Of a stretch of 64,000 nt of DNA, positions 24,976-49,144 are shown piece after piece (the first letter of the stretch is position 1; each line of letters begins with the position of its first letter). Source of the stretch: an uncultured bacterium. Lineage in GTDB: Bacteria; Omnitrophota; Omnitrophia; Omnitrophales; Aquincolibacteriaceae. The stretch spans positions 512-64,511 of the forward strand of contig CAZSFZ010000010.1 of NCBI GenBank assembly GCA_964606385.1, written 5' to 3'. The notes beneath the pieces are model-generated. The model was not told the origin of the DNA. It did no database searches and saw only the letters and a program-made list of their open reading frames with translations. Position numbers and translations under genes: made by a program.

Positions 24976-24987
24976 ACCGGAGGTCCT

Positions 24988-26145: not shown

Positions 26146-26152
26146 GATAGAA

Positions 26153-26698
26153 ATGAACTTTAAAGATCTGATCCAAAAGCGGCGGAGCGTCAGGAAATAT
26201 TCCGGTCGCCCCATCCCCAAAGACGACATCTTGAAATGCCTTGAGGCGGCGCGGCTTGCGCCGTCGGCGTGTAATTCCCAGCCGTGGCATTTCATTGTGA
26301 TCGATGATCCCGCCTTGAAGGACCGGGTGGCCGGCCGGATCTTCTCTGGGGTTTACTCCATGAATCAATTCGCCAAAGAGGCGCCGGTACTGATCGCCGT
26401 GGTGACGGAAAGATCGAAGTTTCTGGCTTCGTTCGGCGGGCAGGTCCGGGACACGAGCTACTGCCTGATCGATATCGGGATCGCCTGCGAACATTTAATC
26501 CTGCAGGCCGAAGAACTCGGGATCGGGAGCTGCTGGATCGGCTGGTTCGATGAGAAAGCCTTGAAAGAAGAATTGGGGATCGCCAAAAATAAAAAGATCG
26601 ATATTGTGATCCCATTGGGATATTCTGCGGAGGATAAGATTCTCCCCAAGACGAGGAAAACATTGGCCGAGGTCAGTTCTTTTAACAGGTATGAATAG
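26153..26698 (+). CDS. Nitroreductase-family protein
   Basis: RRSVRKY...APSACNSQPW motif. Confidence 0.8.
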   Translation: MNFKDLIQKRRSVRKYSGRPIPKDDILKCLEAARLAPSACNSQPWHFIVIDDPALKDRVAGRIFSGVYSMNQFAKEAPVLIAVVTERSKFLASFGGQVRDTSYCLIDIGIACEHLILQAEELGIGSCWIGWFDEKALKEELGIAKNKKIDIVIPLGYSAEDKILPKTRKTLAEVSSFNRYE

Positions 26699-27595: not shown

Positions 27596-27975
27596 AACAG
27601 TTCCTTTTTAAATGACCGCGCAATCTTGCGGCAGGCAAGTTGCAGGGGGAATTTAATCCGCCAACGTTTTATGGCGGACGAATAAAAACGTTCTTTAAAG
27701 AGGCGCCATTCTATACGATGCGGGAGGGATGGGAAAGCTCTCTTCTGTGATCGAAGGGACTAGCCCCTGCCTGTCCGGCAGGCAGGCAATTAATCGTTTT
27801 ATTTTTAAGTGGAGCATTGGACACACTCCGCGAAATCGGCGATAATGCCTCCACGTTACTACTTCCACCGCATTTTTGAGGAACTCAGGTCATGCCCAAT
27901 CTTTCATCAAAAAATGAAAGGGTTGATTGGACTAGCCCTGACAACCTTTATTTAAAAGAAAAGAGATGTCAGGAC

Positions 27976-28380
27976 ATGTTTAAAGTCGCTAAAACGATCT
28001 ATTTTAATTACGGGCATCGCCTCCTGGGAGGCTCTCATAACAAGTGTTCTCATCTTCATGGCCACAGCGCGCGCGTGGAGATCGAAATGGCGACCCCTAA
28101 GCTTAATCGACAGGGGATGGTCGTGGATTTTTTTGATATCAAGCGGACGATCGGGGAATGGATCGACCGGAGCCTCGACCACAAGATGATCCTCTGGAAC
28201 AAAGACCCTCTCGCGAAACTTCTCAAAAAAGCTGGGGAGCCCGTGGTGCTTGTGAAAGAAAACCCGACCGCGGAAATGCTCGCCCGGAAGATCTTTGAGG
28301 AAGCCCGCCGGATGAAACTGCCGGTCTCCAAAGTCACGCTTTGGGAGAACCAGGACAGCTTCGCGGTTTATCAGACATAA
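27976..28380 (+). CDS. queD: 6-carboxy-5,6,7,8-tetrahydropterin synthase QueD (PTPS family)
   Basis: CSHLHGHS motif. About 134 aa from ATG 27976. The ORF-track N-terminal extension is rejected. Confidence 0.8.
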   Translation: MFKVAKTIYFNYGHRLLGGSHNKCSHLHGHSARVEIEMATPKLNRQGMVVDFFDIKRTIGEWIDRSLDHKMILWNKDPLAKLLKKAGEPVVLVKENPTAEMLARKIFEEARRMKLPVSKVTLWENQDSFAVYQT

Positions 28381-32363: not shown

Positions 32364-33113
32364 ATGCATACTAAAAAGATCCTGGTCGTGGACGATGATC
32401 CGGATGTTCTGGCGGTGCTTTCTCAGAGGTTTGTCTCCTCCGGGTATGAAGTCTGCACCGCTAAAGACGGCGAAGACGCGATCGCCAAGACCAAATCCGA
32501 AAAACCCGCCCTGATTGTCATGGACGTGCTCATGCCGAAGCTTACCGGGTATGAGGTGCTTGAGGCGATCCGGAAAGACGATGCTTCGCGAAAGATCCCG
32601 GTCATTGTTATTTCAGCCAAAGGAAGCATGCGGGAGTTTTTTGCGGACCGTCCCGGAGTGGAGTTCATCGCCAAGCCTTATGATCCCAAGGTGCTTTTGT
32701 CGAAAGTGGAAAGGCTCCTGTGGGAAAGCGGGCAGCAGAATCCGGAGGCCTCAAACCGGGTCGTGCTGCTGGGCGTTCAGGAAGCCCTCACGAACAAGAT
32801 CCAGATGCTTATTCAGTCGCTGAACCATCAGGTTTTTATCGCCTTGAATGAGGAGGACGCCTTTCAGGTGGCGCAGCGGGTGAGCGCCGGCAATATCCTT
32901 TGCCAGTTCTGGGAGGATGAGAGTGTTTTGAGCGCCAAGAAACTCAAAGCGAAATTCGATAATCATCCCTTATTCAAACATGTCCCGCTTTATGTTTACG
33001 CCGAAGACAGGATCTCCGTGGAAGCCCTGAAAGTCTTCTCCACGGGAAGGGTCATCGTCTACAGCACCAAGGAAGAGCTTCTGGAAAAAATAAGCGAGCT
33101 TTTCAGGGATTAA
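32364..33113 (+). CDS. Response regulator: REC domain plus C-terminal degenerate (pseudo-)receiver domain, paralog 1
   Basis: VVDDDP...VMDVLMPKLTGYE...KP REC motifs. The C-terminal half lacks the acidic pocket. Confidence 0.75.
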   Translation: MHTKKILVVDDDPDVLAVLSQRFVSSGYEVCTAKDGEDAIAKTKSEKPALIVMDVLMPKLTGYEVLEAIRKDDASRKIPVIVISAKGSMREFFADRPGVEFIAKPYDPKVLLSKVERLLWESGQQNPEASNRVVLLGVQEALTNKIQMLIQSLNHQVFIALNEEDAFQVAQRVSAGNILCQFWEDESVLSAKKLKAKFDNHPLFKHVPLYVYAEDRISVEALKVFSTGRVIVYSTKEELLEKISELFRD

Positions 33114-33174: not shown

Positions 33175-33924
33175 ATGCCTTCTAAAAAAATCCTCATTGC
33201 CGATGATGACGCCAATCTTTTGACTATTCTCGAGAAACGTCTGATCGCTTCCGGCTATGAAGTGGTGACCGCGAGGGACGGCGCGGAAGCCTTGGCGGTG
33301 GTCGGCGCCCAAATGCCGGACCTGATCGTGATGGATGTTATCATGCCCAAGATGACCGGCTACGAAGTGCTCGAAAAGATCCGCAGTATGGATTCCCTCC
33401 GGAAGATCCCGGCTATCATTATTTCCGCGAAAGGAAGCATGCGGGATTTTTTTATCGATCTTAGCGGCGTGGAGTTTATGTCCAAGCCCTATGAGATCAA
33501 GATGCTTCTTACCAAGGTCGAACGGCTTCTTTGGGAGAGCGAAGGGAAGGATCAGGACGGTTCCAGGCGCATCGTTCTTCTAGGCGCGCAGGAAGCACTT
33601 TTGAATAAGATCCAGGCCGCCGTCGGTGAATTAGGGTATCAGGCCTTTGCGGCGCTCAACGAAGAAGATGCCCTGAATCTGGCGAAGCAGGTAAATGCCG
33701 CGAATGTGCTCTGCCAATTTTGGGAAGATGAGAATATTTTAAGCGCTCCCAAGCTGAAGGAGAAACTGGCCGGGCACCCGCTGCTCGGCGAAGTATCCCT
33801 GCATGTGTATTGCGATGAGAGGCTTTCTTCCGAGGCGATGAGGAGTTTTTCGGACGGACGGCTTCTTATCTATCGCGACGAGACGGATCTGATCGATAAG
33901 GTCGTCGAGCTTTTCAGAGAATAA
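33175..33924 (+). CDS. Response regulator: REC plus pseudo-receiver, paralog 2 (tandem duplicate)
   Basis: Same length (249 aa) as its upstream neighbour and aligns to it without gaps at about 55-60% identity. Confidence 0.75.
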   Translation: MPSKKILIADDDANLLTILEKRLIASGYEVVTARDGAEALAVVGAQMPDLIVMDVIMPKMTGYEVLEKIRSMDSLRKIPAIIISAKGSMRDFFIDLSGVEFMSKPYEIKMLLTKVERLLWESEGKDQDGSRRIVLLGAQEALLNKIQAAVGELGYQAFAALNEEDALNLAKQVNAANVLCQFWEDENILSAPKLKEKLAGHPLLGEVSLHVYCDERLSSEAMRSFSDGRLLIYRDETDLIDKVVELFRE

Positions 33925-33930
33925 GTTCTG

Positions 33931-35898
33931 CTAGACCCGCAGTTGTTTTTCAGCGTCCACCACATCCCGGTCGATCATGTCCCGCGCGCGTCTCGCCTTG
34001 GCCTTGAGCCCTTCGGAGGCGTGGGGCGCATTCGCGATCTCCCGCAGTAATTGGATCACCATCCGGATATACCGGACGAGGCTTCCTTCGTCTTCCGAGG
34101 TCATCTGGCAGATCTTTTCGAAGTCTTTACCCTGCGTCCACGCTTCTACAGCACGAGCCAGATGAAAATAGGGAGGTTTGGTGTGGGGGGTGACCCGGAA
34201 ATTGGATTCCCACTTGTAGATCATCCGGTGATAATGCTGCGTCATTTTAAGGAGTTCGCCGTGTTCTCTGCCGAGCCGCGGGGCTTCGTCGTTCTTCCGG
34301 GGTTCAAAGATCATGCCGGCAAGAAGGACATTCAATTTGGCTTCATCCAGTTGCTCCAGGGCCCCATCCGTATACATTTCCGTGAGGAGCAATTCAAAGC
34401 CGAAGATCGAGGCCGCGAATTCCCCTTTGACCGTGAGAACCCCCTGCGTTTCAGTAGCGCCCTGGTCGGTGATGTAGCCCATTTCCTGCAGGAGCGCGAG
34501 CTTATTCTTGAGAAGATCGAGCCCTTCCTCTCGTTTGCGTTTGGAAGATTGAAAAAAATGGAACGATCGGGGATAGATCTCAAGCAGCCTGTGCCCGAGC
34601 ATTTTATAGAGGTTCAGGAGCGTCGCGTAGGTGGCATTCAGCTGGCTCCGCACGGGTTCCGGCCTTCCATAGAGGATGCGCTCCACTTCGGGAAAGGGGA
34701 TATCGTTCGGATGGATGCGGCAGTAAACGAACCCTTCCGGGTCCATGCCGCGCCGCCCCGCGCGGCCGGCCATTTGAAAGAAATCCCGGGTGGTGAGCGG
34801 TTTGAACCCCGTGCCGTAAAATTTCTCCAACTCGTCAAAAACCACGGTACGGGCCGGCATGTTGATGCCGAGAGCGAAAGTTTCCGTCGTGAAGATCAGC
34901 TTGATCAGGCGGCTGGTGAAAAGACGTTCGATGACTTCTTTTAAAGTGGGAAGCATGCCCGCGTGATGGTAGGCGATCCCTTGCTCGACAAGCGGCCGGA
35001 TCTCCTCCGCGGTTTTGTCGCCCGCCAGATCAAAGCGCGTCAGGAGTTCGTCGTAAAGCCGGCGGATCTCGCGGCGTTCCGTCTCGCGGACAAGATCGAA
35101 ATGCGCGACCTCCCAAGCCAGCATGGCCGTGCGCTTTCGTCCGAAGGCGAAATAAATGGCGGGGAGCTGGTCTTCATGGATCAGATGTTTCAGAATATCG
35201 TGAAGCCGGTTTGGCCTCGCGCGAGGCGGCTGCCAGCCGCGGCGTCTTTCCCGCATCGAAAGCTTCCAATTATCGCGTTGGAGGTAACCTTCCTTACGGA
35301 GCGACTTCGTGTTGGTGAGGATTTTGCCCTGGCACTGAAAAAGGAAATGGAGCGGGACCGGGCGATGCGTTTCCTCAATGACGGCGATCGGGCGCTCATG
35401 GATCTGTCGGATCCATGCGGCAAGCTCCTGGACGTTCGGGATCGTAGCGCTCAGGGCCAGGATGCGTATCTCGGGCGGAGTGAAAAGAAGCGCTTCCTCC
35501 CAAACCGTCCCGCGTTGGGCGTCATCCAGGTAATGGACCTCGTCAAAGACGACCCAGCCGATCTTTCGGATGCGGTCCGCATTCTCGAAAAGGGAATTCC
35601 GGTAGATCTCGGTCGTCATGATGAGGAGGGGCGCCTCGGAGTTGATCGAGACATCCCCGGTGAGGATCCCTACGGTGTCGCTTCCGAAATGTTGCTGAAA
35701 ATCCCGGAATTTCTGGTTACTCAGGGCCTTGATGGGGGCGGTATAGATCACCTGTTCGCCGCGGGACAGGGCCTTCTCGATGGCTTTTTCGGCGATGAGC
35801 GTTTTCCCCGATCCCGTGGGCGCGGAAACGAGCAAGGAATGCTCCTTTTCGATCCACTCGATCGCCTGCAGCTGGAAAGGGTCTAATTGAAAAGGCAT
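33931..35898 (-). CDS. Ski2-like DEVH-box SF2 helicase (HelY-type)
   Basis: APTGSGKT motif I, DEVH motif II, SAT motif III and QMAGRAGRRG motif VI. Confidence 0.85.
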   Translation of the reverse strand: MPFQLDPFQLQAIEWIEKEHSLLVSAPTGSGKTLIAEKAIEKALSRGEQVIYTAPIKALSNQKFRDFQQHFGSDTVGILTGDVSINSEAPLLIMTTEIYRNSLFENADRIRKIGWVVFDEVHYLDDAQRGTVWEEALLFTPPEIRILALSATIPNVQELAAWIRQIHERPIAVIEETHRPVPLHFLFQCQGKILTNTKSLRKEGYLQRDNWKLSMRERRRGWQPPRARPNRLHDILKHLIHEDQLPAIYFAFGRKRTAMLAWEVAHFDLVRETERREIRRLYDELLTRFDLAGDKTAEEIRPLVEQGIAYHHAGMLPTLKEVIERLFTSRLIKLIFTTETFALGINMPARTVVFDELEKFYGTGFKPLTTRDFFQMAGRAGRRGMDPEGFVYCRIHPNDIPFPEVERILYGRPEPVRSQLNATYATLLNLYKMLGHRLLEIYPRSFHFFQSSKRKREEGLDLLKNKLALLQEMGYITDQGATETQGVLTVKGEFAASIFGFELLLTEMYTDGALEQLDEAKLNVLLAGMIFEPRKNDEAPRLGREHGELLKMTQHYHRMIYKWESNFRVTPHTKPPYFHLARAVEAWTQGKDFEKICQMTSEDEGSLVRYIRMVIQLLREIANAPHASEGLKAKARRARDMIDRDVVDAEKQLRV

Positions 35899-35925
35899 GC
35901 CCTGGCCTCTATTTTCTTTTATTAA

Positions 35926-35953
35926 AGGTTGCTAGGACTAGTCCAATTAACCT
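35926..35953. promoter_or_regulatory. 27-bp near-palindromic motif copy 1 (AGGTTGCTAGGACTAGTCCAATTAACCT) in the divergent helicase/OMP promoter region
   Basis: The reverse complement recurs at 43116-43142 with 2 mismatches. Contains the perfect palindrome GGACTAGTCC. Confidence 0.5.
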
Positions 35954-36142
35954 TTGAATCTTCTGAAGGGGAATTGGACATGGCGGTAGTATAACCTGAA
36001 ACCCGGGGCACGGGGAATGATGAACACTCGTGTCCCGCGAGATTTGTAAATTGCTTTTCCAGAAGGGTAGGGGTAGACTACGCCCAATTGTATTCTGTGG
36101 TTTTTTTGGGTATTACGTGAAGAAAGGCTTATAAAAATTCCG

Positions 36143-37564
36143 ATGAGATCCAGATCCTTTTTTTGTCTCGCCCTTTTGCTTCTGCTGCTTTCCTCGGGCG
36201 CCGCTGTTTTTGCCGAGGACATTACCAATGAAGCTCAAACCGTTCAGCGCGAAACTTTTCGTGCGGATCAGGCCGAACGGGTTGCCGAAAAATCCAAGGA
36301 AAAAGCCGACGCGGATAAGTACAAGACGGGCGTCACGTACGAAGACATTCTCAAAGATCCGGACAATATCGAGCTGAACGCCCGTTATGCCCAGGATCAG
36401 ATCGCCCGGGGGGAGCTTTTAAGCGCGGCCGCGACCCTGGAGCGCATGCTGCTCGTGAACCCCAATCTGGCGGATGTGCGGCTCTTATACGCCGTGGTCC
36501 TGTACCGCTTGGACAGCCTTAATGAAGCCCAGAAGGAACTGGAATCTCTCAAGACCGTTACGCTCCCGCCGGAGATCCGCACCCAGGTTACGGAATACGA
36601 GAAAAAGATCAAATCGAGGAAACGCCGGACCCGTTTCGGGATCCGTCAAAGCGTAGGGTGGGGCTATGACACGAACCGGAACGCGGCGCCTTCTTCGAAA
36701 TTCCAGCTGGTGAACGATATCGCTCAGCCTCTGACCGGGTCCAATACCCGGCATCCCGACACTCATTTTTTGAATATTTCCAGCTTTGACGTGACGCATG
36801 ACCTGGGCTTTCAGGCCGGGCACTCGGTGTTCGGAAACTTCACCTACTTTCTCCAAGAGCAAACAACGGTCGATTCGCTGGATCTCGGATCTTTTCAATA
36901 TGAGTTGGGCGGTACTTACAAATGCCGGTGGTTTGATTTCTCCCCGTCCTTTATTGCGAGCAACATCTTTCTTTCCCGGGAAAGCTTTTTGAGGACCCAG
37001 GGCGGGAATTTTCTTTTCGAGCGGGACGTGACCAAGAAGATCAAGGCTTTCTATGACTTCCGGATGGAGCGGCAGGATTATCTGAATACGACGGAAAATA
37101 CGGATTCTTACGATTATAAAGGCCCGGAGTTCAGCCATTTCTGGGGGGCGAGCTACGTGATCCTTCCGACCATGAAATGGACCACGAGCCTCGGTTTTTC
37201 AGATAAATCCGCCAAACAAAGCTATAACGCTTATGACCGTCTGAGTCTTAACAATTCACATACCTGGGTCCTTCCCAAGGGACAGTTCCTTATTAACGCG
37301 ATCAATGTGAATTTCGATAACTACGATCGCGCGGAAGAGACCGTGGCTGGGAAGGTTCGTCACGACAGAGCGATGAGATATCGCATTACTTACGGGACGC
37401 CGCTCAACACGATCTTTTTTAACAGTAAGCTTCTCATCAAGCCGCTCAAAGACATCGTCTTTACGGGCTCCTACGAGATCTACCGCTCCCTCTCCAGCAT
37501 CACCAATTACAGTTATACAAATAACAAGTTCCAGCTCATGCTCACCAAGCGATTGGAGTTCTAG
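36143..37564 (+). CDS. Outer-membrane beta-barrel protein with N-terminal TPR region (Slam/DUF560-like architecture)
   Basis: Signal peptide, TPR-like helices, an aromatic-rich beta-strand region and a C-terminal Phe. Confidence 0.55.
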   Translation: MRSRSFFCLALLLLLLSSGAAVFAEDITNEAQTVQRETFRADQAERVAEKSKEKADADKYKTGVTYEDILKDPDNIELNARYAQDQIARGELLSAAATLERMLLVNPNLADVRLLYAVVLYRLDSLNEAQKELESLKTVTLPPEIRTQVTEYEKKIKSRKRRTRFGIRQSVGWGYDTNRNAAPSSKFQLVNDIAQPLTGSNTRHPDTHFLNISSFDVTHDLGFQAGHSVFGNFTYFLQEQTTVDSLDLGSFQYELGGTYKCRWFDFSPSFIASNIFLSRESFLRTQGGNFLFERDVTKKIKAFYDFRMERQDYLNTTENTDSYDYKGPEFSHFWGASYVILPTMKWTTSLGFSDKSAKQSYNAYDRLSLNNSHTWVLPKGQFLINAINVNFDNYDRAEETVAGKVRHDRAMRYRITYGTPLNTIFFNSKLLIKPLKDIVFTGSYEIYRSLSSITNYSYTNNKFQLMLTKRLEF

Positions 37565-37566
37565 TC

Positions 37567-38907
37567 ATGAAAAAAACGATAGCCTCCTTTTCCGTTTTCT
37601 TTCTCATGATCTCGGAGCCTTTGCTTTTCGCTCAAATGGCGGTTCCCATGCCGGCGATCGCGCAGGCTTCTGGTTTGGAGAGGGTGGGTGTGGTCGCAGC
37701 GGCGGGAGGCAAGGTCGAGTTGACAACGCCGGGACAGGTGGGGCGCATCGCTCAGAGCGGTCAAGCGATCTTCCTTGGGGATGAGGTCAGGACCGACGCC
37801 CTGGGTCACCTTCAGATCCTTCTCTTGGATGAAACGGTTTTTACGATCGGTCCGAACAGCACGATCATCATTGATAAATTCGTATATGACCCCAAGAGCC
37901 AAAAGGGCGAGATCAAGGCCAGCATCACGAAGGGCGTTTTCCGTTATGTGTCCGGAAAGATCGCGGCCAAGAATCCCGACGCGGTCAAAGTCAAGCTTCC
38001 CGCGGCGACGCTCGGATTCCGCGGGACGATCGTCGGTGGATCAGTCGGCGGGAACGGCCAAGGGCTTGCGGCGCTTCTGGGTCCGGGGTCCAACAATGAC
38101 GCCGGCGCTCCGGGGGGTAATTTTACCATTGAAGGAACAGACGGCGGTTTCCAAAGTGTCAGCCGGACGGGATTCGGGGTCGAATTCGACGGGAATGGAG
38201 GCGTCTCGGGAGTGTTCCAGTTATCCGGTGACCAGATCAACGGCCTGACGGGAGGCCTTGGCGGCGGCGCTCCGGGAAGCGGAGGTCAGGGTTCCGGAGG
38301 AGGCAATGAGAACGGTTTTGGTGGCGATGGCAATATGGGTAACCTTTCCGGCGAGAATAATGTGCTCGGTGGGATGAATGGGAACATGATAAACGGCATT
38401 TCCGGTTTTGCGGATGGACTTTATGCTCAGAGCGTGATCGGGGCCCAGGAGGCGGCTCAAAGCGGGGTATCCGGAGTGAAGGACGGCATTACTCAATCTT
38501 CGGATCTCTCCACGATCACAAGCGGGGTTTTCCATTACTATGCCACGGGAACCTATTATGGATCTGGAACCATGACGGCTGAAATTGATATTGATTTTTC
38601 TTCCAAGACAATTGTTGGGGGCAACTCTTACGTTTCTATTAGTGACGGGGCGTATAGCGACAAAACTGCCGGAATGTCCACTCCTGTGTCCTTTGGCAGC
38701 TCCGGAGATGCGACTTTTCATTGGACTAATGTTTCTGGAAGTTCTGGAACCTTTACCAATATTAATATCACGCTTTTCAATTCAGGAGGTGTTGTTGCGG
38801 AACAAGCGACGGTAAAGGTTGATTATGTTCCGATTAGCGTTGGCCCGGCTTCCGGCAGCGGAAGTGCCGAAGGGCCCCGTTTGGACGGGCCGACACCGGA
38901 TGTTTAA
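37567..38907 (+). CDS. Secreted FecR-domain protein, paralog 1, with Gly/Asn-rich and Ser/Thr-rich C-terminal extension
   Basis: Signal peptide. FecR-like core GDEVRTDALGHLQILLLDETVFTIGPNSTIIIDKFVYDP...TLGFRGT. Confidence 0.7.
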   Translation: MKKTIASFSVFFLMISEPLLFAQMAVPMPAIAQASGLERVGVVAAAGGKVELTTPGQVGRIAQSGQAIFLGDEVRTDALGHLQILLLDETVFTIGPNSTIIIDKFVYDPKSQKGEIKASITKGVFRYVSGKIAAKNPDAVKVKLPAATLGFRGTIVGGSVGGNGQGLAALLGPGSNNDAGAPGGNFTIEGTDGGFQSVSRTGFGVEFDGNGGVSGVFQLSGDQINGLTGGLGGGAPGSGGQGSGGGNENGFGGDGNMGNLSGENNVLGGMNGNMINGISGFADGLYAQSVIGAQEAAQSGVSGVKDGITQSSDLSTITSGVFHYYATGTYYGSGTMTAEIDIDFSSKTIVGGNSYVSISDGAYSDKTAGMSTPVSFGSSGDATFHWTNVSGSSGTFTNINITLFNSGGVVAEQATVKVDYVPISVGPASGSGSAEGPRLDGPTPDV

Positions 38908-38956
38908 AAAACTGAAAACTAGCCCATTTTGAATTCAAGGCGGTAAGGAAAATCCC

Positions 38957-39868
38957 ATGAAAAAAATTTTTGTTTTAATGTTGGTGGTTTTTGCCAGTTT
39001 GTTTTTTATGATATCCGGCAGTTTGTTTGCGATGGAGATGCCCACCCAGGCGGGAGTTGCGGCAGCCGTAAAAGGCGAGGTCAAGGCCACAACGCCTCCG
39101 GATAAAACTCCTCATGTGCTGAAAAGCGGCGACAAGGTCTATATGGGAGATAAGATCGAGACGGGCGATCAGGGGCAGCTCCAGATCCTTCTTCTGGACC
39201 AGACGGTTTTTACTCTCGGGCCGATGAGCTCCATCACGGTCGATGAATTCGTCTATGATCCTTCCAACGATGACGGGAAAGTGAAGGCGAGCGTGATGAA
39301 AGGCATCTTTCGCGTCGTGTCAGGCAAGGTAGCGCACAAAAAACCCGAGAACATGTCGGTCGATCTTCCCTCGGGAACGATCGGTTTTCGGGGTACCAAT
39401 GTAGCGGGGATCATTGACGGACAAAAGTCGACCGTCGTCCTGCTCGGGCCCGTAGGTGTCGGGCGCATTTATGTGACGAATATCGTGAACGGCGAAGTTG
39501 TGGGAGTGGACATCGATGAAGTCGGGAACGCGACGATCGTCGACGGGCCTAACAGCGCTCCCGTGGCGGTGTTCCAGGTTTCGCAGGAGGTTCTCAACCA
39601 GATCGCCACAGCCCTGGGCCAGCCTGTGACCGGTGCTGACACGGCCGGAACGGACACGGGGACTCCTTCTTTTCCAAGAGGGCCGGTGGATACCCAGGCC
39701 TTGATGGATCTTTTGAATCAGGTCGATGATCTGAATCAGACCAGTGTCATCGGCGCCCAAAGCGCGGCTCAATCTTCCGCTGAAAGCGCTGCCAAAGACC
39801 ACTCGGATTCAAGGAATGCAAATTCGGGCAGCGATACCGGCAATAATTACACAGTAACCCATCCGTAA
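38957..39868 (+). CDS. Secreted FecR-domain protein, paralog 2
   Basis: Same FecR-like core (QLQILLLDQTVFTLGP...TIGFRGT). Shares the SVIGAQxAAQS motif with paralog 1. Confidence 0.7.
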   Translation: MKKIFVLMLVVFASLFFMISGSLFAMEMPTQAGVAAAVKGEVKATTPPDKTPHVLKSGDKVYMGDKIETGDQGQLQILLLDQTVFTLGPMSSITVDEFVYDPSNDDGKVKASVMKGIFRVVSGKVAHKKPENMSVDLPSGTIGFRGTNVAGIIDGQKSTVVLLGPVGVGRIYVTNIVNGEVVGVDIDEVGNATIVDGPNSAPVAVFQVSQEVLNQIATALGQPVTGADTAGTDTGTPSFPRGPVDTQALMDLLNQVDDLNQTSVIGAQSAAQSSAESAAKDHSDSRNANSGSDTGNNYTVTHP

Positions 39869-39923
39869 CGGACAGGTGTTTCAGGATCGACCTGAACCTT
39901 CAAATTCCGAAAGGGCTCCCTTT

Positions 39924-40829
39924 GTGAAAAAAACATTGTTTGTTTCTTTATTTGCGACCCTTTTCATTTTTTCCGTCCTGCTCGGGCAAATGTTGCCTTC
40001 CGCTTTTGCGTTGGAACCTGCTGTCGGAGTGGCTGGGGGAATTCACGGCACAGTGACCGTGATCTCGAAAGAGGGGGAAACACGGACCCTCCAGGGCGGG
40101 GATCCGGTTTATCTCGAAGACCGGTTGACCACGGAAGCTGACGGCCGCCTTCAGATCCTTCTTCTTGATGAAACCGTATTCACGGTGGGTCCTGAGAGCA
40201 GTATCACCGTAAAAGAATTTATTTATGACGCTTCGGCGGGAAGCGGTAAGCTCAAAGCCGATGTCATCAAAGGTTTTTTCCGGATCATTTCAGGCAAGAT
40301 CGCCCACCAGGATCCTGAGAATATGAGCGTCGAGCTTCCCGCCGGTACGATCGGATTTCGCGGGACGATGGTCATGGGAAGATCTGAAGGCACCCGGTCG
40401 CTTGTGGTGCTTTTGGGTCCCGCCGGCGGGGAAGGAGTTCGTCCGGGACGTATTTATGTAGCCAATATCGTGAATGGTGAGGCATTGGGTGTCGAGATCG
40501 ATCAGAAAGGTTATGGAACCGTGATCGAAGGCGATAACACGGCCCCTCTTCCTGCTTTTAAAGTGACGGAGGAAGAGCTCGAAATGCTCAATCAAGCCCT
40601 GAATGCGGATTCCGGATCGACCCATGAGACTGCCGTGGGCCAGGGAGAGGGTGGTAACGCTTCCCGGGCAAATTTCGATTCAGGACATTTGCCGGAAGCT
40701 TTTTCCTTAATGTCCCAGATGGATGAGCATCTCCAACGAGCTGCCCAGGGCGGGATGCTGACGCCCACTCCGGCGGTTACTCCCGTGACCGTTCCCGGGG
40801 GCCGCGATGACGACGGAGGCGACAAATAA
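39924..40829 (+). CDS. Secreted FecR-domain protein, paralog 3
   Basis: Same core (RLQILLLDETVFTVGP...TIGFRGT). GTG 39924 is preferred because it immediately precedes the signal peptide; ATG 39876 is the alternative. Confidence 0.65.
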   Translation: MKKTLFVSLFATLFIFSVLLGQMLPSAFALEPAVGVAGGIHGTVTVISKEGETRTLQGGDPVYLEDRLTTEADGRLQILLLDETVFTVGPESSITVKEFIYDASAGSGKLKADVIKGFFRIISGKIAHQDPENMSVELPAGTIGFRGTMVMGRSEGTRSLVVLLGPAGGEGVRPGRIYVANIVNGEALGVEIDQKGYGTVIEGDNTAPLPAFKVTEEELEMLNQALNADSGSTHETAVGQGEGGNASRANFDSGHLPEAFSLMSQMDEHLQRAAQGGMLTPTPAVTPVTVPGGRDDDGGDK

Positions 40830-40866
40830 TCCGAAGATCTTTTCGGGTTGGTTTTAACCCACCAGG

Positions 40867-43089
40867 TTATTTTGAGTCCGCGGTGGTCGTGCCGTCCCAA
40901 TTGGGTCCCGGGGGATTGATCTTGAAGGCAAGGATACGGGAAACATAAAGCTCGTACAAAATGCCGAGGTCGATCCCCGGAAGCGTGACGTGGCGGCAAC
41001 GCTCCAGCAATTTCTCAGCTTCTTCCCAGCGTTGGGCCCGGTAGGCCGCGAGCATCTTTTCGAAATTTCCACGGACCTCCTGAAAAAGCGGCTGGGCGGC
41101 TAATCCCGAATTCCCCAAAAGGGCGAAGATCCTCACCGGTTTTGTTTTTCCCTTCACGCGGATCATATCGATCTCAAGGAACGCGAGTTCCGGTACCTCT
41201 GCGACCGTGTTTTGTCCGGCGACGGTTGTGACGCCGTAATTTCTGGAGAGGCTCTCAAGACGTGAAGCCAGGTTTACATGATCGCCCAGGACGGTGTAGT
41301 CGAAACGCTGCTCCGACCCCATGTTGCCGACGCAGGCCTGTCCGGAGTTGATCCCGATCCCGATCTTGACGGGCGGCAGAGGATGAGCGCCTTTTTCGCT
41401 TTGCGTATTCCATTCCCTGACGAGGACCTGCATGTCGAGCGCCGCGAGGCAGGCGTGCCGGCTATGCTCCTTGTCTTCCATCGGCGCGTTCCAGAACGCC
41501 ATGATGCAGTCCCCGATGTATTTATCGATCGTGCCCGCGTGTTTAAGAACGATGTCCGTCATCGGCGTGAGGAATTTATTCATGAAATGCGTGAGCTCTT
41601 CCGGCTTCATCTGTTCCGCGATACCGGTGAAATTACGGATGTCCGTGAAAAGGAAGCTCATGACGCGGATCTCGCCGCCGAGCTTGAGCTGCTTCGGATT
41701 CTTGGCGAGTTTTTCGACAAGCACAGGCGAAAGATACCGGCCGAAAGCCCCGCGGACCTGACTGCGCTCCCATTCGGTTCCGAGGAAATTCAAAAACGAA
41801 GAAACAAGGAAGATAAGAGAAATACCGAGGGACGGGAATACCGGATCGATCAAGCGTTGTTCACGCACGAATTGATACCAGGAGAGTCCGAAGACCGACA
41901 CGATCGCCAGGATGCCGATCGCGGCGCAGTAGATCGCCCCGACCCTGGGCAGGATCAAAATAAGAAGCAGTCCCATGACGACCAAAAAGGTGAATTCCGC
42001 GCCGACGGCCCAATCCGGACGGTTCAAAAAATCCCCCGTGATCATTTGTTCCGCGACCTGCGCGTGGACATCGACGCCGGCCGCAAGCGGGTTCAAGGGC
42101 GTGGAACGCATATCTTTGAGCGCCTGGGCGCTTGAACCAATGAAAAGGATCTTGTCCTTGACGGCGGCTAGCGCTTCATCGTCTGAAAGGATCTTCCACG
42201 CGGGGATATAGCGTTTGGACTGATAACCCGTATCATAAAGCCAGACGCGTCCCCGGTTATCCGTCGGAACTTTCAAAAGGCCGAATTTGATCTCCACGAT
42301 GCCGGTTTCCGCGCCGAAAGAAGCTTCGTCTTTTGTGCCGCCGGCCAACGTAATAATGTAATTCGAGGCATCCTGGTAAACCCGCATGGCCTCGAGCGCT
42401 AACGAGGGATAGATCGAATCGTTCAGGCGATAGAAGGACGGGACCCTGCGAACGATATTGTCCCATTCCAGATCGATATTAAAGCAACCATTCCCCTTGG
42501 CGGCTTTTTCCAGAGGAGGAAGATCCAGGACCGCGCCTTTAAAAACGGGGAAAATGTACTTGGACGGATTGTCATCGATCGAGCCGCCCCGGTGCGAAAT
42601 CCCGGCTTTGGACGCGGGGACTTTTTTATTTTTTTCGTTGGTCAGCGCGAAACCCAGGATCACCGGAGAGTGTGAGATGACTTTTGCGAAGACATCGTCA
42701 TGATCGGGGATCATTTCAAGCTGTGCGCGTAGAAGTTCGCTGGCGGAACCCTCGGTCCATAGAGGAATGATGCTTTTCGGGGAGGTCCGGTCGGGTTCGG
42801 CGAAAACACCGTCAAAAGCGATCACGGTGGCGCCGCCCTCGACGAGGCGTACGATCAGCTTTCCAAGAATGGTCCTGGGCCACGGCCACTGGCCGGCCTT
42901 TTCCAGGCTCTCGTCGTCGATATCGATGATGCGGACCGGGGTGTCCTGATAAACGCGCGGCTTGATCATTTGAAAGATGTCAAAGACCTTGGCGCGGAAG
43001 GACTCGATCGGTTCGGGAAAGGAGAAATGAAAGACGACGACACCCAGGAGGATCAGGGCAGGGATAATATAGGAAAGTGCCTTTCGCAT
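40867..43089 (-). CDS. CHASE2 sensor-domain class III adenylate/guanylate cyclase
   Basis: N-terminal TM, CHASE2-like periplasmic region, three TMs, then a cyclase domain (FLFTDIRNFT...KYIGDCIMAFWNAP...GDHVNLASRLE). Confidence 0.85.
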   Translation of the reverse strand: MRKALSYIIPALILLGVVVFHFSFPEPIESFRAKVFDIFQMIKPRVYQDTPVRIIDIDDESLEKAGQWPWPRTILGKLIVRLVEGGATVIAFDGVFAEPDRTSPKSIIPLWTEGSASELLRAQLEMIPDHDDVFAKVISHSPVILGFALTNEKNKKVPASKAGISHRGGSIDDNPSKYIFPVFKGAVLDLPPLEKAAKGNGCFNIDLEWDNIVRRVPSFYRLNDSIYPSLALEAMRVYQDASNYIITLAGGTKDEASFGAETGIVEIKFGLLKVPTDNRGRVWLYDTGYQSKRYIPAWKILSDDEALAAVKDKILFIGSSAQALKDMRSTPLNPLAAGVDVHAQVAEQMITGDFLNRPDWAVGAEFTFLVVMGLLLILILPRVGAIYCAAIGILAIVSVFGLSWYQFVREQRLIDPVFPSLGISLIFLVSSFLNFLGTEWERSQVRGAFGRYLSPVLVEKLAKNPKQLKLGGEIRVMSFLFTDIRNFTGIAEQMKPEELTHFMNKFLTPMTDIVLKHAGTIDKYIGDCIMAFWNAPMEDKEHSRHACLAALDMQVLVREWNTQSEKGAHPLPPVKIGIGINSGQACVGNMGSEQRFDYTVLGDHVNLASRLESLSRNYGVTTVAGQNTVAEVPELAFLEIDMIRVKGKTKPVRIFALLGNSGLAAQPLFQEVRGNFEKMLAAYRAQRWEEAEKLLERCRHVTLPGIDLGILYELYVSRILAFKINPPGPNWDGTTTADSK

Positions 43090-43115
43090 GTCCAATTCTC
43101 TATTTAAAAATTAAC

Positions 43116-43142
43116 GGTTAATTGGGCTAGTCCTGGCAACCT
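43116..43142. promoter_or_regulatory. 27-bp motif copy 2 (GGTTAATTGGGCTAGTCCTGGCAACCT), inverted relative to copy 1, 27-53 nt upstream of the cyclase ATG
   Basis: 25 of 27 nt identical to the reverse complement of 35926-35953. Confidence 0.5.
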
Positions 43143-43364
43143 TCTATGAAAATAAATGGAAGCCAGGATATGGGGGGATTATATACGGGAAACGGGAAGC
43201 GGGGAACGGGGAACGTAAAATTTTTGAGCGGGGATCCCCGGGAGGTGACGAGGGCGAAGTCCTTTGCTCTTTCTCTCAAAAAACTCCATGATTATTTTTG
43301 GGAAATGGATAGACTATCCCTACCTTGGTTTTTATTTTTGAATCTGAACAGGAGGAAGCCGGCT

Positions 43365-45259: not shown

Positions 45260-46126
45260 CTAAGGAAGAAAGACGTGATTGACCGGAGGTTTTTTCTCCG
45301 GAGGAGGCGGGGGTTCGGGAGAAGCCGGCTTGTATCCCGTATCTTCCCGCATGGATTGCAGCGCCTGTTCATAATTCCCGCCGTAGCGCAGCATATTCCA
45401 CACAAGCATTCCCCACAGGGACAGCGCGACCGTCTCAAAAAGAAAGATCCATACGTCCGGGGCGCCTTGAAAAAGATAAGGGACCTTCAAAGCCCAGCGG
45501 ATCCCCTGGTCCAAAAATCCCACACAGGCGACCATGAATACGGCGCGGGAGGCGCCTCTTTGTTTGCAAAAAAAACAAAAACACGCGGTCAGGACAAGCA
45601 CTGCGAGCATAAAATAAAAAAATGCGAGCTTTTCCGAGGAGCATGAGGCCCAACTGCCGGTGATCCATTCCCGGCCGAACGCGGTCCCCTGAAAGATCCC
45701 GAGGGCGCTATAGTAGAGAAAACGGAAGATCAGCAACGTAAAAACGGCTCCTCCGTTCAAAAGAGCGCCGATCCTGGGTCCGGTCATGTTGAGTTGTTTG
45801 CTGATGAAACGGGTGATGCTGTCGAGAACATGCGCGGGGACCTCTTCGAACCGGATTCCCGTGGAAAGCATTCCCCTGCCTTTCCCTTTGGCGGGCATCT
45901 GATGGACGACGCGGCCTCGAAAAACGACTTTACCGATACTCCCGCGAAGCCCCAGACGGAGTTCGATCACGGAATCTTTTTCGACGGGTTGGCGTGTCAG
46001 AAGCCCCAGGCCGCTTGTGCTGAGGTCTACGGAAAAGGCCTTCGTCCATCGTGGGGAACCGGGAGTCTTAAAAAAAACAGGAAAGCGGGACCTTAACCGG
46101 AGGCACAGCCGGTCGCCGATACCCAT
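45260..46126 (-). CDS. PilZ-domain protein with C-terminal TM segments
   Basis: RLRSRF...DLSTSGLGL PilZ c-di-GMP-binding motifs. Four C-terminal TMs. Confidence 0.7.
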   Translation of the reverse strand: MGIGDRLCLRLRSRFPVFFKTPGSPRWTKAFSVDLSTSGLGLLTRQPVEKDSVIELRLGLRGSIGKVVFRGRVVHQMPAKGKGRGMLSTGIRFEEVPAHVLDSITRFISKQLNMTGPRIGALLNGGAVFTLLIFRFLYYSALGIFQGTAFGREWITGSWASCSSEKLAFFYFMLAVLVLTACFCFFCKQRGASRAVFMVACVGFLDQGIRWALKVPYLFQGAPDVWIFLFETVALSLWGMLVWNMLRYGGNYEQALQSMREDTGYKPASPEPPPPPEKKPPVNHVFLP

Positions 46127-46549: not shown

Positions 46550-47794
46550 TCAGGTGGTGACTCCGGTGTCCCAGGCGAGGCTGTTCATTTCTTGCCAGGT
46601 TAGAACGTTTATCTGATCGTTCGCATTCGGGTCCGGGGCAGGGGTGGTTGCCATAGCCAGATCGAAGTGGACCGTGGGATTGCCCCCTCCGAACGTCGAA
46701 AAAGTTTTTGCGACTACAGCCCCGTAAATGACCCCGCCCTTTCCGGAATTAGACGTCTGAAAAGACACATCCGAATTCGGCGCATAGAGCCCGCCCATAA
46801 AAGAGCCGTTTCCTCTGAGAAGCACACTCGAGTTACCAGTCACATAAATGTGGAGATTCGAAGGTTGATTCTCGGCTGCGGTGGTCCCTTGTCCGGTGAT
46901 GGCGACGCTACCGTCAACGTAGATTTTGACAGCTCCGGTTGTTACGATCGCTCCTTTATTTCCCGAAAGGTGGATGGAGCTGCAGTGGTAGGTTCCGGCG
47001 GTCAGAGTCACGGCTCTTGTGATATTGCTGAGATCGATCTCGGTCGGAGGTGTCTCGAGCGACGCCATATCAGGGGGTGCTCCAAGCGTCCAGCCCGTTG
47101 GTAAAGTTCCGGTTCCTTGAGTAATGGTTGAATTGTTCGTGGTGATTCCGGTGCTCGGATTGCCGTCCTCGTTAACCAGAGCGGTGCCGTGGACCGTAGT
47201 ATTCGTCATCGCGATGGCCCCGATGGCGGTCGAATTCGCAGCAATCGCGCCATCACCGCTGGTGTTGGCCCCGCCGTACGGCAGGCTCGAAGTGTAACTG
47301 TCAAATCTGAAGCCCGACAGGTTCATCGATTGCGTCACATAAACACCGTAGTCAAAAAGACCGCCCGGAGCCGGGGCTTTATAAATCTGGGCATAGACAG
47401 TGATATCAGAGGTTTGATAGGCCCGCGAAGTGGTGGCGCAGCTCGGGGCGCAACCCGTCGCGTCAATTCTACGCATCAAAGGTTGATTGGTGACAGGGGA
47501 GATCGTATACCGGTACTCCCCTTGAGCCAGAGGGAGTGGGCCGTAATCATGAGCGGCGCTTGCGGTTTCGATTTGCCCTGCCTGACCGTTTCCCAGATAT
47601 CTGAGCGCGGCATCGATGCCGGCTTCCGCGGCGTTAAAAGCCAAAATTCGATTCTGATATCGTTCCGTGCCTTGCATCGCGGCCTGATGCCTCGCGAAGA
47701 AAGCGAACGCAAAAATGGCGACCACGACCACAACGATGTACACGACCAAAAGAACAAAACCTTTTTTATTGGATATGGATTTTAGAGTTTTCAT
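46550..47794 (-). CDS. PilX-like minor pilus assembly protein
   Basis: N-terminal MKT...KKGFVLLVVYIVVVVVAIF PilX-N-like hydrophobic segment. Thr/Gly/Asn-rich body. Confidence 0.6.
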   Translation of the reverse strand: MKTLKSISNKKGFVLLVVYIVVVVVAIFAFAFFARHQAAMQGTERYQNRILAFNAAEAGIDAALRYLGNGQAGQIETASAAHDYGPLPLAQGEYRYTISPVTNQPLMRRIDATGCAPSCATTSRAYQTSDITVYAQIYKAPAPGGLFDYGVYVTQSMNLSGFRFDSYTSSLPYGGANTSGDGAIAANSTAIGAIAMTNTTVHGTALVNEDGNPSTGITTNNSTITQGTGTLPTGWTLGAPPDMASLETPPTEIDLSNITRAVTLTAGTYHCSSIHLSGNKGAIVTTGAVKIYVDGSVAITGQGTTAAENQPSNLHIYVTGNSSVLLRGNGSFMGGLYAPNSDVSFQTSNSGKGGVIYGAVVAKTFSTFGGGNPTVHFDLAMATTPAPDPNANDQINVLTWQEMNSLAWDTGVTT

Positions 47795-48375
47795 GGGTTT
47801 CTCGCCTCCGCTTGCGTGGTAAGCACTATGGGTTGATCCGGGATTGTCCGGCCGTCCGGAAGTGTTAGTTGAGCGCTTATTTGGATCATGACGAGCGGGG
47901 AGATCGCGCTCGGTCTCGAGAAGCTAAGAGCTGTGACGTTGTTAGCAAGAACGCTTTGTTTGACTGTCGGATTGCCCTCTTCGTCCAGGATAACGGAGGT
48001 TCGAAGGATTTGTTGTGTGTTCGAGTCCAGAAAGTACCTGATGTCGGCCGCCCAAAGCGGCGAATAGCTGCTATCCACGAGTGTTGACTCATCCGGTTCA
48101 GGAACAGGGACCCTGAAGTTGATCTCATTGCCTGCCATTATGTTCCCGCTTCCAAAGTCCGTGATTTCATTATACGCAGTTTGGCGAATCTCTTGGGCCA
48201 TCTTGAACAGAGCTTCGCGCGGGCCTTCCTGGAGGGTCATTTTGGCATGAATCGTATTAAGTTGATTGCTGCTTGCCTGCAGGATCGCGAATGTGCCAAA
48301 AAGGATGATCACAGAAATAGCGGTCGCGATGATGATCTCGACAAGCGTGAAACCGCATTTCATGGTCTTCATTTC
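47791..48375 (-). CDS. Type IV minor pilin-like protein (PilW-like)
   Basis: Prepilin N-terminal cleavage/methylation motif KCGFTLVEIIIA. Overlaps the downstream gene by 4 nt. Confidence 0.7.
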   Translation of the reverse strand, partial: EMKTMKCGFTLVEIIIATAISVIILFGTFAILQASSNQLNTIHAKMTLQEGPREALFKMAQEIRQTAYNEITDFGSGNIMAGNEINFRVPVPEPDESTLVDSSYSPLWAADIRYFLDSNTQQILRTSVILDEEGNPTVKQSVLANNVTALSFSRPSAISPLVMIQISAQLTLPDGRTIPDQPIVLTTQAEARNP

Positions 48376-48376
48376 A

Positions 48377-48793
48377 TCATCCCCTTTGTGTGATATAAGT
48401 CTCAACCGTCTCCGTACTTTGACGCCCCGTATATGATGACCATGTTACCGTGACCGTGCAGACCAAGGGGTTTGCTGCCGGGTTTTGGTAGGTCACCGTC
48501 ACTTGTTCGTTCGTCAAACTGTTGAATCCTGCCACAGGGCCATTATCCGGGTAGGCCGTAACGACACTGGCAGGGAATGGATCGGTATTTGAAATAGTCC
48601 TCATTTGTTCAATAACCTGGTTCGCATTCTGGATTGCGACCGTGCGCTCATTCATTTCCTCGGTATTTTTGTGTGCTTGGATATTAGCTCCCACATAGCT
48701 CAGGATCACTACCGTTAAGATCACAAGAGCGATCATGAGTTCTGCTAACGTGAAGCCTGCTTTTTTCCCTAATAGAACCGTCCTTTTTTTCAT
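48377..48793 (-). CDS. Type IV minor pilin-like protein (PilV/GspH-like)
   Basis: Prepilin motif KKAGFTLAELMIALVIL. Start at MKKRT (48793). The ORF-track 43-aa extension is rejected. Confidence 0.7.
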   Translation of the reverse strand: MKKRTVLLGKKAGFTLAELMIALVILTVVILSYVGANIQAHKNTEEMNERTVAIQNANQVIEQMRTISNTDPFPASVVTAYPDNGPVAGFNSLTNEQVTVTYQNPAANPLVCTVTVTWSSYTGRQSTETVETYITQRG

Positions 48794-49144
48794 CGCAACT
48801 CCTTCCAAAGCTTCTACTATACTACCTCCACTACAATTATAGGCTGAGGCTGTTCCTAAGGCAACATTGTTTGGATAGTATAAACAATCAATTTTTGCAT
48901 TAAGAAGTCTTTTATATAGCAATAAATATCATATTTAATGCTCCTTCGCCATCATATTATTTGGTTCCAAACTGAGCGTCACAAGGACCAGTCATAAGGG
49001 GATCGGCGTTATTTTTAAAAAAGACGATCCCTTTTCAAAATAAAAAAAAAGAGCCTGCGCTAAGAGTTCATATCGCTGGATTGTTAGGCCAGATTTTGTA
49101 TACTCATAAGGCGCTGGCGACATTTTCTGAAACGGGAACCCAAG

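Follow-up and report, generated by a model that had tools for sequence, protein, structure and literature searches.

In S. meliloti, the perception of an external plant protein signal by the cyclase CyaK needs the outer-membrane protein NsrA (PMC7529298, PMC13001267, PMC10463352). A gene cluster of Campylobacterota encodes a CHASE2 cyclase, a phosphodiesterase, a FecR-domain outer-membrane protein (OMP) and a tetratricopeptide-repeat (TPR) protein, which have been proposed to act in a single pathway (PMC9239204). In the BiofilmReg-type operon of Burkholderia and in PA4035/PA4036, a LysM-FecR protein is encoded together with a CHASE2 histidine kinase (PMC5192318). Here, we have analysed a 64,000-nucleotide stretch of DNA from an uncultured member of the Omnitrophota (contig CAZSFZ010000010.1, hereafter the window), in which a block of 7.2 kb encodes an OMP, three FecR-domain proteins and a CHASE2 cyclase. 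This block, conserved and hitherto uncharacterised, varies on a type of envelope-to-cyclic AMP (cAMP) signalling unit that is already known. The original prediction was aware of no described unit of an OMP, a FecR triplet and a CHASE2 cyclase, which overstated its novelty, since NsrA-CyaK (PMC7529298, PMC13001267) and the Campylobacterota cluster (PMC9239204) were already on record.

The pSymB gene just upstream of cyaK encodes a protein of 1190 residues with a FecR domain (66-160), TPRs (417-587) and a C-terminal barrel region. From its size and its location beside cyaK, we take this protein (L007:4216-7788) to be NsrA. To our knowledge, the need of CyaK for NsrA has been the sole functional lead, since the CHASE2 domain was defined, to what such domains sense. 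The outer-membrane side of the block recalls the type 11 secretion systems (T11SS), whose cargo typically has a variable N-terminal domain followed by an eight-strand C-terminal barrel, and which can export soluble, non-lipidated cargo (PMC12282271). That cargo survey (PMC12282271) does not mention FecR as a cargo N-domain, and in the literature searched DUF560/Slam was tied neither to FecR nor to CHASE2 cyclases; the link between type 11 secretion and a FecR/CHASE2 module appears to be new.

The block and its conservation among relatives

The open reading frame (ORF) listing and the Pfam matches agreed with the predicted layout, with the OMP gene and three FecR genes on the plus strand and the cyclase gene converging on them. 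The OMP gene (36143-37564, +) encodes 473 residues with a signal peptide and a C-terminal F, and its Pfam matches were sub-threshold TPR matches alone. It is followed by the FecR1 gene (37567-38907, +, 446 residues), the FecR2 gene (38957-39868, +, 303 residues) and the FecR3 ORF (39876-40829, +), the last with a probable GTG start at 39924 preceded by AAAGGG. All three paralogs scored above the 24-bit cut-off of PF04773 (29.7, 40.5 and 31.3 bits, respectively). The OMP and FecR1 genes are separated by 2 nucleotides (nt) here and overlap in several relatives. Inspection by eye revealed a K/R-rich start, a hydrophobic core and an xFA motif in all four plus-strand proteins, indicative of Sec-type signal peptides, and no lipobox in any of them.

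The cyclase ORF (40867-43095, -, 742 residues, likely start ATG 43089) scored 174.1 bits with the CHASE2 model and 77.9 bits with Guanylate_cyc in Pfam. Its layout, with membrane segments placed by eye, comprises one transmembrane segment, a periplasmic CHASE2 domain, a hydrophobic stretch read as three transmembrane segments and a cytoplasmic catalytic domain. The motifs FTD, DKYIGD, LGDHVNLASR and VKGK are invariant between this cyclase, S. meliloti CyaK and four further homologues. The enzyme also has the two Asp that bind metal, the Lys and Asp that define the substrate and the Asn and Arg of the transition state, all of them residues with well-established roles in class III cyclases. Judged by these residues, the enzyme is a class III cyclase of the adenylate type.

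We have then examined how constantly these genes occur together. A profile scan of JGI metagenomes yielded 74 loci, which were searched with purpose-built hidden Markov models. A FecR ORF started less than 400 nt after the OMP stop codon in 50 of the 54 loci with sequence past the OMP gene, and three of the four exceptions do contain a FecR ORF and were artefacts of the ORF boundaries. The CHASE2 cyclase was found in every locus with at least 6 kb downstream (22/22), its orientation across the census being convergent (26 loci), divergent (4) or co-directional (2). The FecR triplet, which had been put forward as a feature of the unit, turned out to be incidental, with one copy in 13 loci, two in 13, three in 4 and four in 1.

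In the seven neighbourhoods that we inspected, the genes for the OMP, for one or more FecR proteins and for the CHASE2 cyclase stay together while the surrounding genes change. The cyclase gene is convergent in L001, L003, L005, L040 and L041 and divergent in L038 and L039, the two most distant loci. The linkage of the trio thus holds over about 30-80% OMP identity and through rearrangements. The homologues of the OMP and FecR1 come almost exclusively from Candidatus Omnitrophota metagenome-assembled genomes and from metagenomes. A plasmid of the alphaproteobacterium Shinella (L117) carries a co-directional operon with an OMP homologue (hhalign probability 98.9%, E 2.5e-17), a FecR protein of 849 residues with a weak FHBP_C match, and a CHASE2 cyclase. 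The expected co-occurrence of FecR and CHASE2 was thus borne out by the loci with enough flank and by the Shinella trio, and the persistence of the linkage through divergence and rearrangement supported the proposal of a conserved extracytoplasmic sensing unit feeding cyclic nucleotide synthesis.

The conserved linkage, the NsrA precedent and the catalytic residues together make it quite probable that the three components act together with cAMP as their output. The fuller reading that we favour, with a probability of roughly 0.6, is that of a conserved envelope-spanning module that would relay signals from the cell surface to cAMP through contacts of the OMP with FecR1 and of FecR with CHASE2. 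The OMP and the FecR proteins would form the outer, signal-receiving half, as a split equivalent of NsrA. The OMP would handle or hold FecR1 through a cargo-type barrel described below, perhaps with the help of a conserved helix common to all three paralogs. A periplasmic FecR domain would then contact the CHASE2 domain and change the activity of the cyclase. The domains, the folds, the linkage of the genes and the adenylate-type residues are what the data show; the contacts between the proteins, an exposed FecR1 and the direction in which a signal travels are inferred.

Some neighbours of the module recur. A GAF-SpoIIE (PP2C) phosphatase and a DUF3307 protein are encoded beside it in L001, L003, L005, L041, L046, L057, L064, L067, L074, L076, L092 and L113, i.e., about a third of the loci with enough flank, and DUF3307 alone was seen on the available sequence of L071, L075, L080 and L081. 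Partner-switching genes (STAS and HATPase) are sometimes found beside the module as well. The GAF domain of the GAF-SpoIIE protein is a candidate downstream cAMP receptor. We looked for GAF-SpoIIE and DUF3307 genes in the window and found none.

Two further arrangements were seen on alphaproteobacterial plasmids. The Azospirillum thermophilum plasmid L116 (6896-9232) carries an OMP homologue and a FecR protein of 298 residues among glycosyltransferase/polysaccharide genes, with no cyclase within 7 kb of the pair; the OMP-FecR pair may therefore serve outputs other than CHASE2 cyclases. In an Ensifer plasmid (L008) and in the Shinella plasmid, the FecR/CHASE2-cyclase genes adjoin NHLP-type bacteriocin export genes, and in Ensifer genes for a cyclic-nucleotide-binding protein and a metallo-beta-lactamase (MBL)-fold hydrolase are also adjacent. 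These neighbours hint at cAMP control of peptide export.

The outer-membrane protein and the FecR proteins

The AlphaFold2 model of the OMP (74 homologues; predicted local distance difference test, pLDDT, 84.9) contains TPR-like helices at 28-160 followed by 14 long strands at 163-472. As modelled, this is the T11SS/Slam architecture of an N-terminal periplasmic TPR domain and a 14-strand barrel. PF04575 (SlipAM, formerly DUF560; gathering score 22 bits) is matched by 22 of its 74 homologues, PF24575 (TPR_Slam) by 19 and DUF2860 by 24. The SlipAM cut-off was passed by four homologues with 44-73% identity, namely P0019 (73% identical, 30.6 bits), P0086 (30.3 bits), P0116 (35.2 bits) and P0120 (25.9 bits). 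Hence, the label "Slam-like" given to the OMP in the original prediction is justified for the family, by architecture and transitive homology, and the protein probably belongs, as a remote relative, to the Slam/DUF560 (type 11 secretion) superfamily; the label did not extend to a PF04575 match in the window protein itself.

The FecR1 model (pLDDT 81.3) revealed a FecR beta-domain (39-207) and a confidently modelled eight-strand C-terminal beta-domain (305-440), joined by a Gly-rich disordered linker (about 233-303) that holds a conserved helix (272-300). Across the family this linker spans 58-136 residues with 23% Gly. In Foldseek, the C-terminal domain matched fHbp, NHBA, HpuA, TbpB, haemophore, LbpB and PmSLP, and these cargo-type matches had better scores and higher identity than OmpA-type membrane barrels. 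On inspection of the sequence, the outside of its strands proved to be polar, in keeping with a soluble barrel. FecR1 would thus correspond, as modelled, to the cognate cargo expected beside a T11SS gene, i.e., a protein encoded nearby with a C-terminal eight-strand beta-barrel. The chances that the OMP is a T11SS-type protein handling FecR1 through this barrel appear to us about even.

We have also searched 1.84 billion representatives with the FecR1 barrel using phmmer. Almost all of the 38 matches were C-termini of FecR proteins, giving no evidence of the barrel on other N-terminal domains. The few remaining matches were multi-repeat adhesin/immunoglobulin-like proteins and looked like spurious beta-repeat matches.

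These findings could also be read as secretion only, with the OMP acting as a T11SS pore and FecR1 as its exported binding protein, displayed at the surface or released (for instance, an adhesin or a nutrient-capture protein, like the FecR-domain proteins Lsa33 and LipL45 of Leptospira) and with the nearby cyclase not physically coupled to it. Such a reading would be compatible with the Slam model matches in the OMP family and the cargo-type barrel of FecR1, with the resemblance that FecR2 and FecR3 bear in NCBIfam to LipL45 and to the surface adhesin Lsa33, and with the capacity of T11SS for soluble non-lipidated cargo (PMC12282271). It does not account for the cyclase found in 22/22 loci with enough flank and kept adjacent through three gene orders, for the barrel-less FecR proteins that follow the OMP in a whole sub-clade, or for the functional coupling of a FecR-bearing OMP to a CHASE2 cyclase in NsrA-CyaK (PMC7529298). 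We therefore consider it rather improbable.

FecR2 consists of a signal peptide, a FecR domain and a short acidic/polar tail that keeps the conserved helix motif, and FecR3 of a signal peptide, a FecR domain and a short tail; both are devoid of a barrel. The helix motif is common to all three paralogs in an alignment. FecR2 orthologues directly follow the OMP in the barrel-less sub-clade, and FecR3 orthologues were found in L062 and L074. A barrel-bearing FecR protein was present in 22 of the 32 loci with both the OMP and the cyclase.

That some loci make do with short FecR2/FecR3-type proteins would suit a second alternative, in which the FecR proteins are periplasmic ligand-binding partners of CHASE2, the OMP is a mere diffusion or uptake channel, and the FecR1 barrel binds a ligand instead of serving as a secretion tag. 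Eight-strand soluble barrels such as haemophilin do bind small ligands, and the best matches of the OMP barrel include the 14-strand channels OmpG and CymA. Nevertheless, the TPR domain is typical of protein-handling OMPs and the family matches the Slam TPR model, the OMP gene almost always has a FecR gene beside it, and the NsrA candidate carries FecR in one covalent chain with TPRs and a barrel. This alternative is, to our mind, of low probability, on a par with secretion alone.

Several observations weigh against the envelope-spanning module that we prefer. The window OMP gave no PF04575 match even at E<=10, and the OMP family matches DUF2860 about as often as PF04575. Foldseek of the OMP model against the PDB returned generic barrels only, with no Slam structure among the matches; the best superpositions were those on the 14-strand OmpG and CymA, and a profile search of PDB sequences with the OMP gave nothing useful. 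The OMP profile has no detectable homology with the barrel of the NsrA candidate (hhalign probability 1.5%). For FecR1, the Foldseek E-values of the barrel matches are weak (about 1e-3), and no Pfam match was found for the barrel (E<=10) or in 67 family members; the cargo barrel models (TbpBBD PF01298, lipoprotein C, FHBP_C) are likewise unmatched by it, so that the resemblance is structural only. Ten of the 32 loci with OMP and cyclase lack a barrel-bearing FecR protein, two or three of them through truncation or split-ORF artefacts, and a whole sub-clade has short FecR2/FecR3-type proteins only; therefore, the cargo barrel cannot be essential to the module. In addition, the cyclase gene is transcribed separately and convergently from the OMP-FecR genes, and full secretion of FecR1 would remove its FecR domain from the periplasmic CHASE2 domain.

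One conceivable form of the module, which we put forward tentatively and hold to be unlikely, is a threaded FecR1. The OMP would export the C-terminal barrel only, with the linker lying in the 14-strand pore and the FecR domain remaining in the periplasm at CHASE2. This arrangement is attractive because the FecR domain resembles a LapA-type retention plug. If it were true, surface events would be passed mechanically to an adenylate cyclase, and the block would represent a split NsrA, a new use of T11SS and the first T11SS-like system outside Proteobacteria.

The flanking motif and other features of the window

The inverted 27-bp motif reported on both sides of the block is indeed present, as AAGGTTGCTAGGACTAGTCCAATTAACC at 35925-35952(+) and AAGGTTGCCAGGACTAGCCCAATTAACC at 43116-43143(-), 28 nt each with 2 differences. 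The number of matches expected from dinucleotide shuffles was 0.00, and the inverted similarity of the flanks reaches 67 nt at 78% complementarity. An alignment showed that these 27-28 nt are the core of a unit of about 87 nt bounded by CAWG. The left copy (35896-35982, -) has a terminal CATG that contains the start codon of a helicase gene (35898, minus strand), and the left terminal CATG of the right copy (43087-43172, +) contains the cyclase start codon (43089, other strand), as it does in L040. A third copy (27891-27978, +; core 27921-27948) lies 8 kb outside the block and abuts the start codon of a PTPS/QueD-like gene (27976); an orthologous copy precedes the PTPS/QueD-like gene in L019.

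The core pattern TTGGRCTAGYCCTRRCAACCTT had 31 exact matches, in 29 stretches from 16 assemblies, among GTDB species genomes. Thirty of these matches, from 15 Omnitrophota-type assemblies, share the flanks of the repeat and include tandem arrays beside unrelated genes, whereas the single match from Solirubrobacteraceae has unrelated flanks. The 15 assemblies, with 28 stretches, comprise 11 labelled Omnitrophota/Omnitrophica and 4 labelled "uncultured bacterium" with the same conserved flanks. The repeat thus reaches at least 15 Omnitrophota-type assemblies. Three loci hold tandem copies at a spacing of 81-85 nt, and several copies lie immediately against the start codon of a gene. Two hairpins of the repeat, CCAATT/AATTGG and CCTGGCA/TGCCAGG, show compensatory changes (GC in 20 copies against AU in 6 for one pair, GC in 25 against AU in 2 for another), and the covariation score exceeded that of all 500 shuffles. 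No compensatory change was found in the central near-palindrome of the motif.

The copies are not constant companions of the module. L040, the closest relative (82% identical), keeps the cyclase-side copy only, both copies are missing at the module in L001, and no copy of the repeat core was found in the divergent loci. The proposal that the motif co-regulates the two outer promoters was thus not upheld, given a dispersed repeat with a third copy elsewhere, its loss in relatives and a separate -35/-10-like pair at the OMP gene. This pair (36051-36079, +; TTGCTT, 17 nt, TAGACT) is a candidate promoter of the OMP-FecR operon, proposed from conservation: the hexamers and the 17-nt spacing are kept while the spacer varies (TTGCTT-N17-TAGACT in L040, TTGATT-N17-TAAACT in L001). 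A sigma-70 consensus scan was at chance level and did not call the pair.

A shared operator for the OMP operon and the cyclase gene would agree with the two near-identical copies in both flanking intergenic regions, and the cyclase start codon abutting the right copy here and in L040 would place the cyclase promoter in or beyond that copy. The third copy at the PTPS gene and the 30 copies in 15 Omnitrophota-type assemblies, the absence of the left copy in L040 and of both in L001, the different conserved -35/-10 pair before the OMP gene, and the lack of covariation in the palindrome, as opposed to its two flanking hairpins, make this very improbable. Still less credible is a mobile or invertible 7.2-kb cassette marked by the inverted repeats. 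The inverted 67-nt pair does flank the block, and the cyclase gene is divergent in some lineages; yet L001 and L040 have the module at an unchanged site next to the helicase gene without the repeat pair, no transposase or recombinase gene was found among the block and flanking ORFs scanned, and the repeat arms are short and diverged, with no core in the divergent loci. Hence, we are confident that the motif is unrelated to the module, and the repeat may nonetheless supply the 5' region of the cyclase gene in this lineage.

The repeat could be a REP/MITE-like element (repetitive extragenic palindromic sequence or miniature inverted-repeat transposable element) or a transcribed RNA element. It resembles REP, MITE and bacterial interspersed mosaic elements (BIME) in being short, multi-copy, intergenic and sometimes tandem, with covarying hairpins; it differs in its CAWG ends, which coincide with neighbouring start codons in several copies, and in being apparently confined to Omnitrophota-type genomes. 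We rejected the idea that the motif is a sigma-54 or plain sigma-70 promoter, as the corresponding hexamers are poor in the repeat consensus; a TATxAA-like hexamer is present in several gene-proximal copies. Across the three window copies and the repeat loci L009-L036, GGAG/GAGG stands 7-9 nt before an outward-facing ATG at both ends when the end is CATG. In four genomes (L021:1239, L023:6750, L028:145, L030:2891), a conserved sequence, tcccaatac..caatttccacaNNgtggaaattggggcaatcctgac, takes the place of the second half of the repeat and contains a clear hairpin; a conserved small RNA or gene may have its 5' end here. Recognising a phylum-wide repeat removes a misleading regulatory hypothesis and exposes an undescribed family of structured repeats.

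Within the right copy, ATG 43170 was discarded as a gene start, because the TrpB-like gene starts at TTG 43365 behind AGGAGGA; the L040 equivalent of this ATG meets a stop after 4 codons. The intervening stretch of about 190 nt (43173-43364), which the ORF finder reads as an in-frame extension and which has no Rfam match, may be a leader. Rfam gave no match in the window as a whole. A small hairpin, CCGAAGATCTTTTCGG (40831-40846), lies between the convergent stop codons and is a possible two-way terminator, although the count of terminator-like sites in the region was not above chance in a consensus scan.

As for other genes of the window, tandem paralogous proteins of 249 residues (32364-33113, + and 33175-33924, +) combine a receiver domain with a C-terminal half of no assignment; they lie just upstream of the helicase gene, in synteny with a single copy in L001 and with three copies in L040. 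A membrane PilZ-domain protein (45260-46126, -) is also encoded beside the TrpB-like gene in L040, and three pseudopilin-like genes (46550-48922, -; N_methyl motifs, DUF7305) come after the PilZ-domain gene. An ORF of 745 residues (24058-26295, -) had no Pfam match.

Comparison with known systems

In FecIRA signalling, FecR carries a cytoplasmic anti-sigma domain and a membrane anchor and works with an extracytoplasmic function (ECF) sigma factor and a TonB-dependent transducer. The FecR proteins of the window differ from the FecA-FecR-FecI arrangement in having neither anti-sigma domain nor anchor, their FecR domain being preceded by a signal peptide alone. Among the immediate neighbours we found response regulators, a helicase, a TrpB-like enzyme and also a PilZ protein, but neither an ECF sigma factor nor a TonB-dependent transducer. 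Domain order and neighbours thus do not fit a FecIRA-type anti-sigma identity. Adhesins of the LapA/MpIBP RTX type are very large proteins, held by an N-terminal retention module in a TolC-like type 1 secretion pore; the corresponding retention of FecR1 in the OMP pore is hypothesized here.

The BiofilmReg-type operon shares with the block a gene for a secreted FecR-domain protein beside a gene for a CHASE2 sensor. It differs in its output, a histidine kinase and a response regulator, in the LysM domain on its FecR protein and in having no TPR-barrel OMP. The Campylobacterota cluster has in common with the block the grouping of a CHASE2 cyclase, FecR, TPR and an outer-membrane component; this cluster is known from gene neighbourhoods only. 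Compared with it, the window block has no phosphodiesterase gene, and its TPR domain is fused to the barrel instead of standing alone. The Ensifer plasmid locus L008 has a Campylobacterota-like domain set with its MBL-fold hydrolase.

With the T11SS (Slam/DUF560 OMPs with TbpB, LbpB, fHbp, HpuA, haemophilin or Pls cargo), the block has in common an OMP of TPRs and 14 strands and an adjacent protein with a C-terminal eight-strand cargo-like barrel. The differences lie in the Omnitrophota host, T11SS having been described as proteobacterial, in the FecR N-domain, in the link to a CHASE2 cyclase, in the loci without a barrel-bearing partner and in the window OMP scoring below the Pfam cut-off. 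This comparison suggests T11SS-like machinery beyond Proteobacteria and beyond nutrient capture.

The closest counterpart is NsrA-CyaK (with CyaD1/D2), in which, as in the window, a CHASE2 class III cyclase gene lies beside a gene for a FecR-domain envelope protein and beside a set of FecR, TPR and outer-membrane barrel. The NsrA candidate holds FecR, TPRs and a barrel region of about 600 residues in one chain, whereas here the TPRs and a 310-residue, 14-strand barrel form one protein and FecR is found on one to four separate proteins. The FecR domains of the two systems align weakly (E 2.3e-4). Thus, the module would work like NsrA-CyaK without being its orthologue, and it looks like a split version of it. 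This split form ties the FecR/TPR/barrel/CHASE2 logic to Slam/T11SS and to a cargo-type barrel, and offers it in separable parts.

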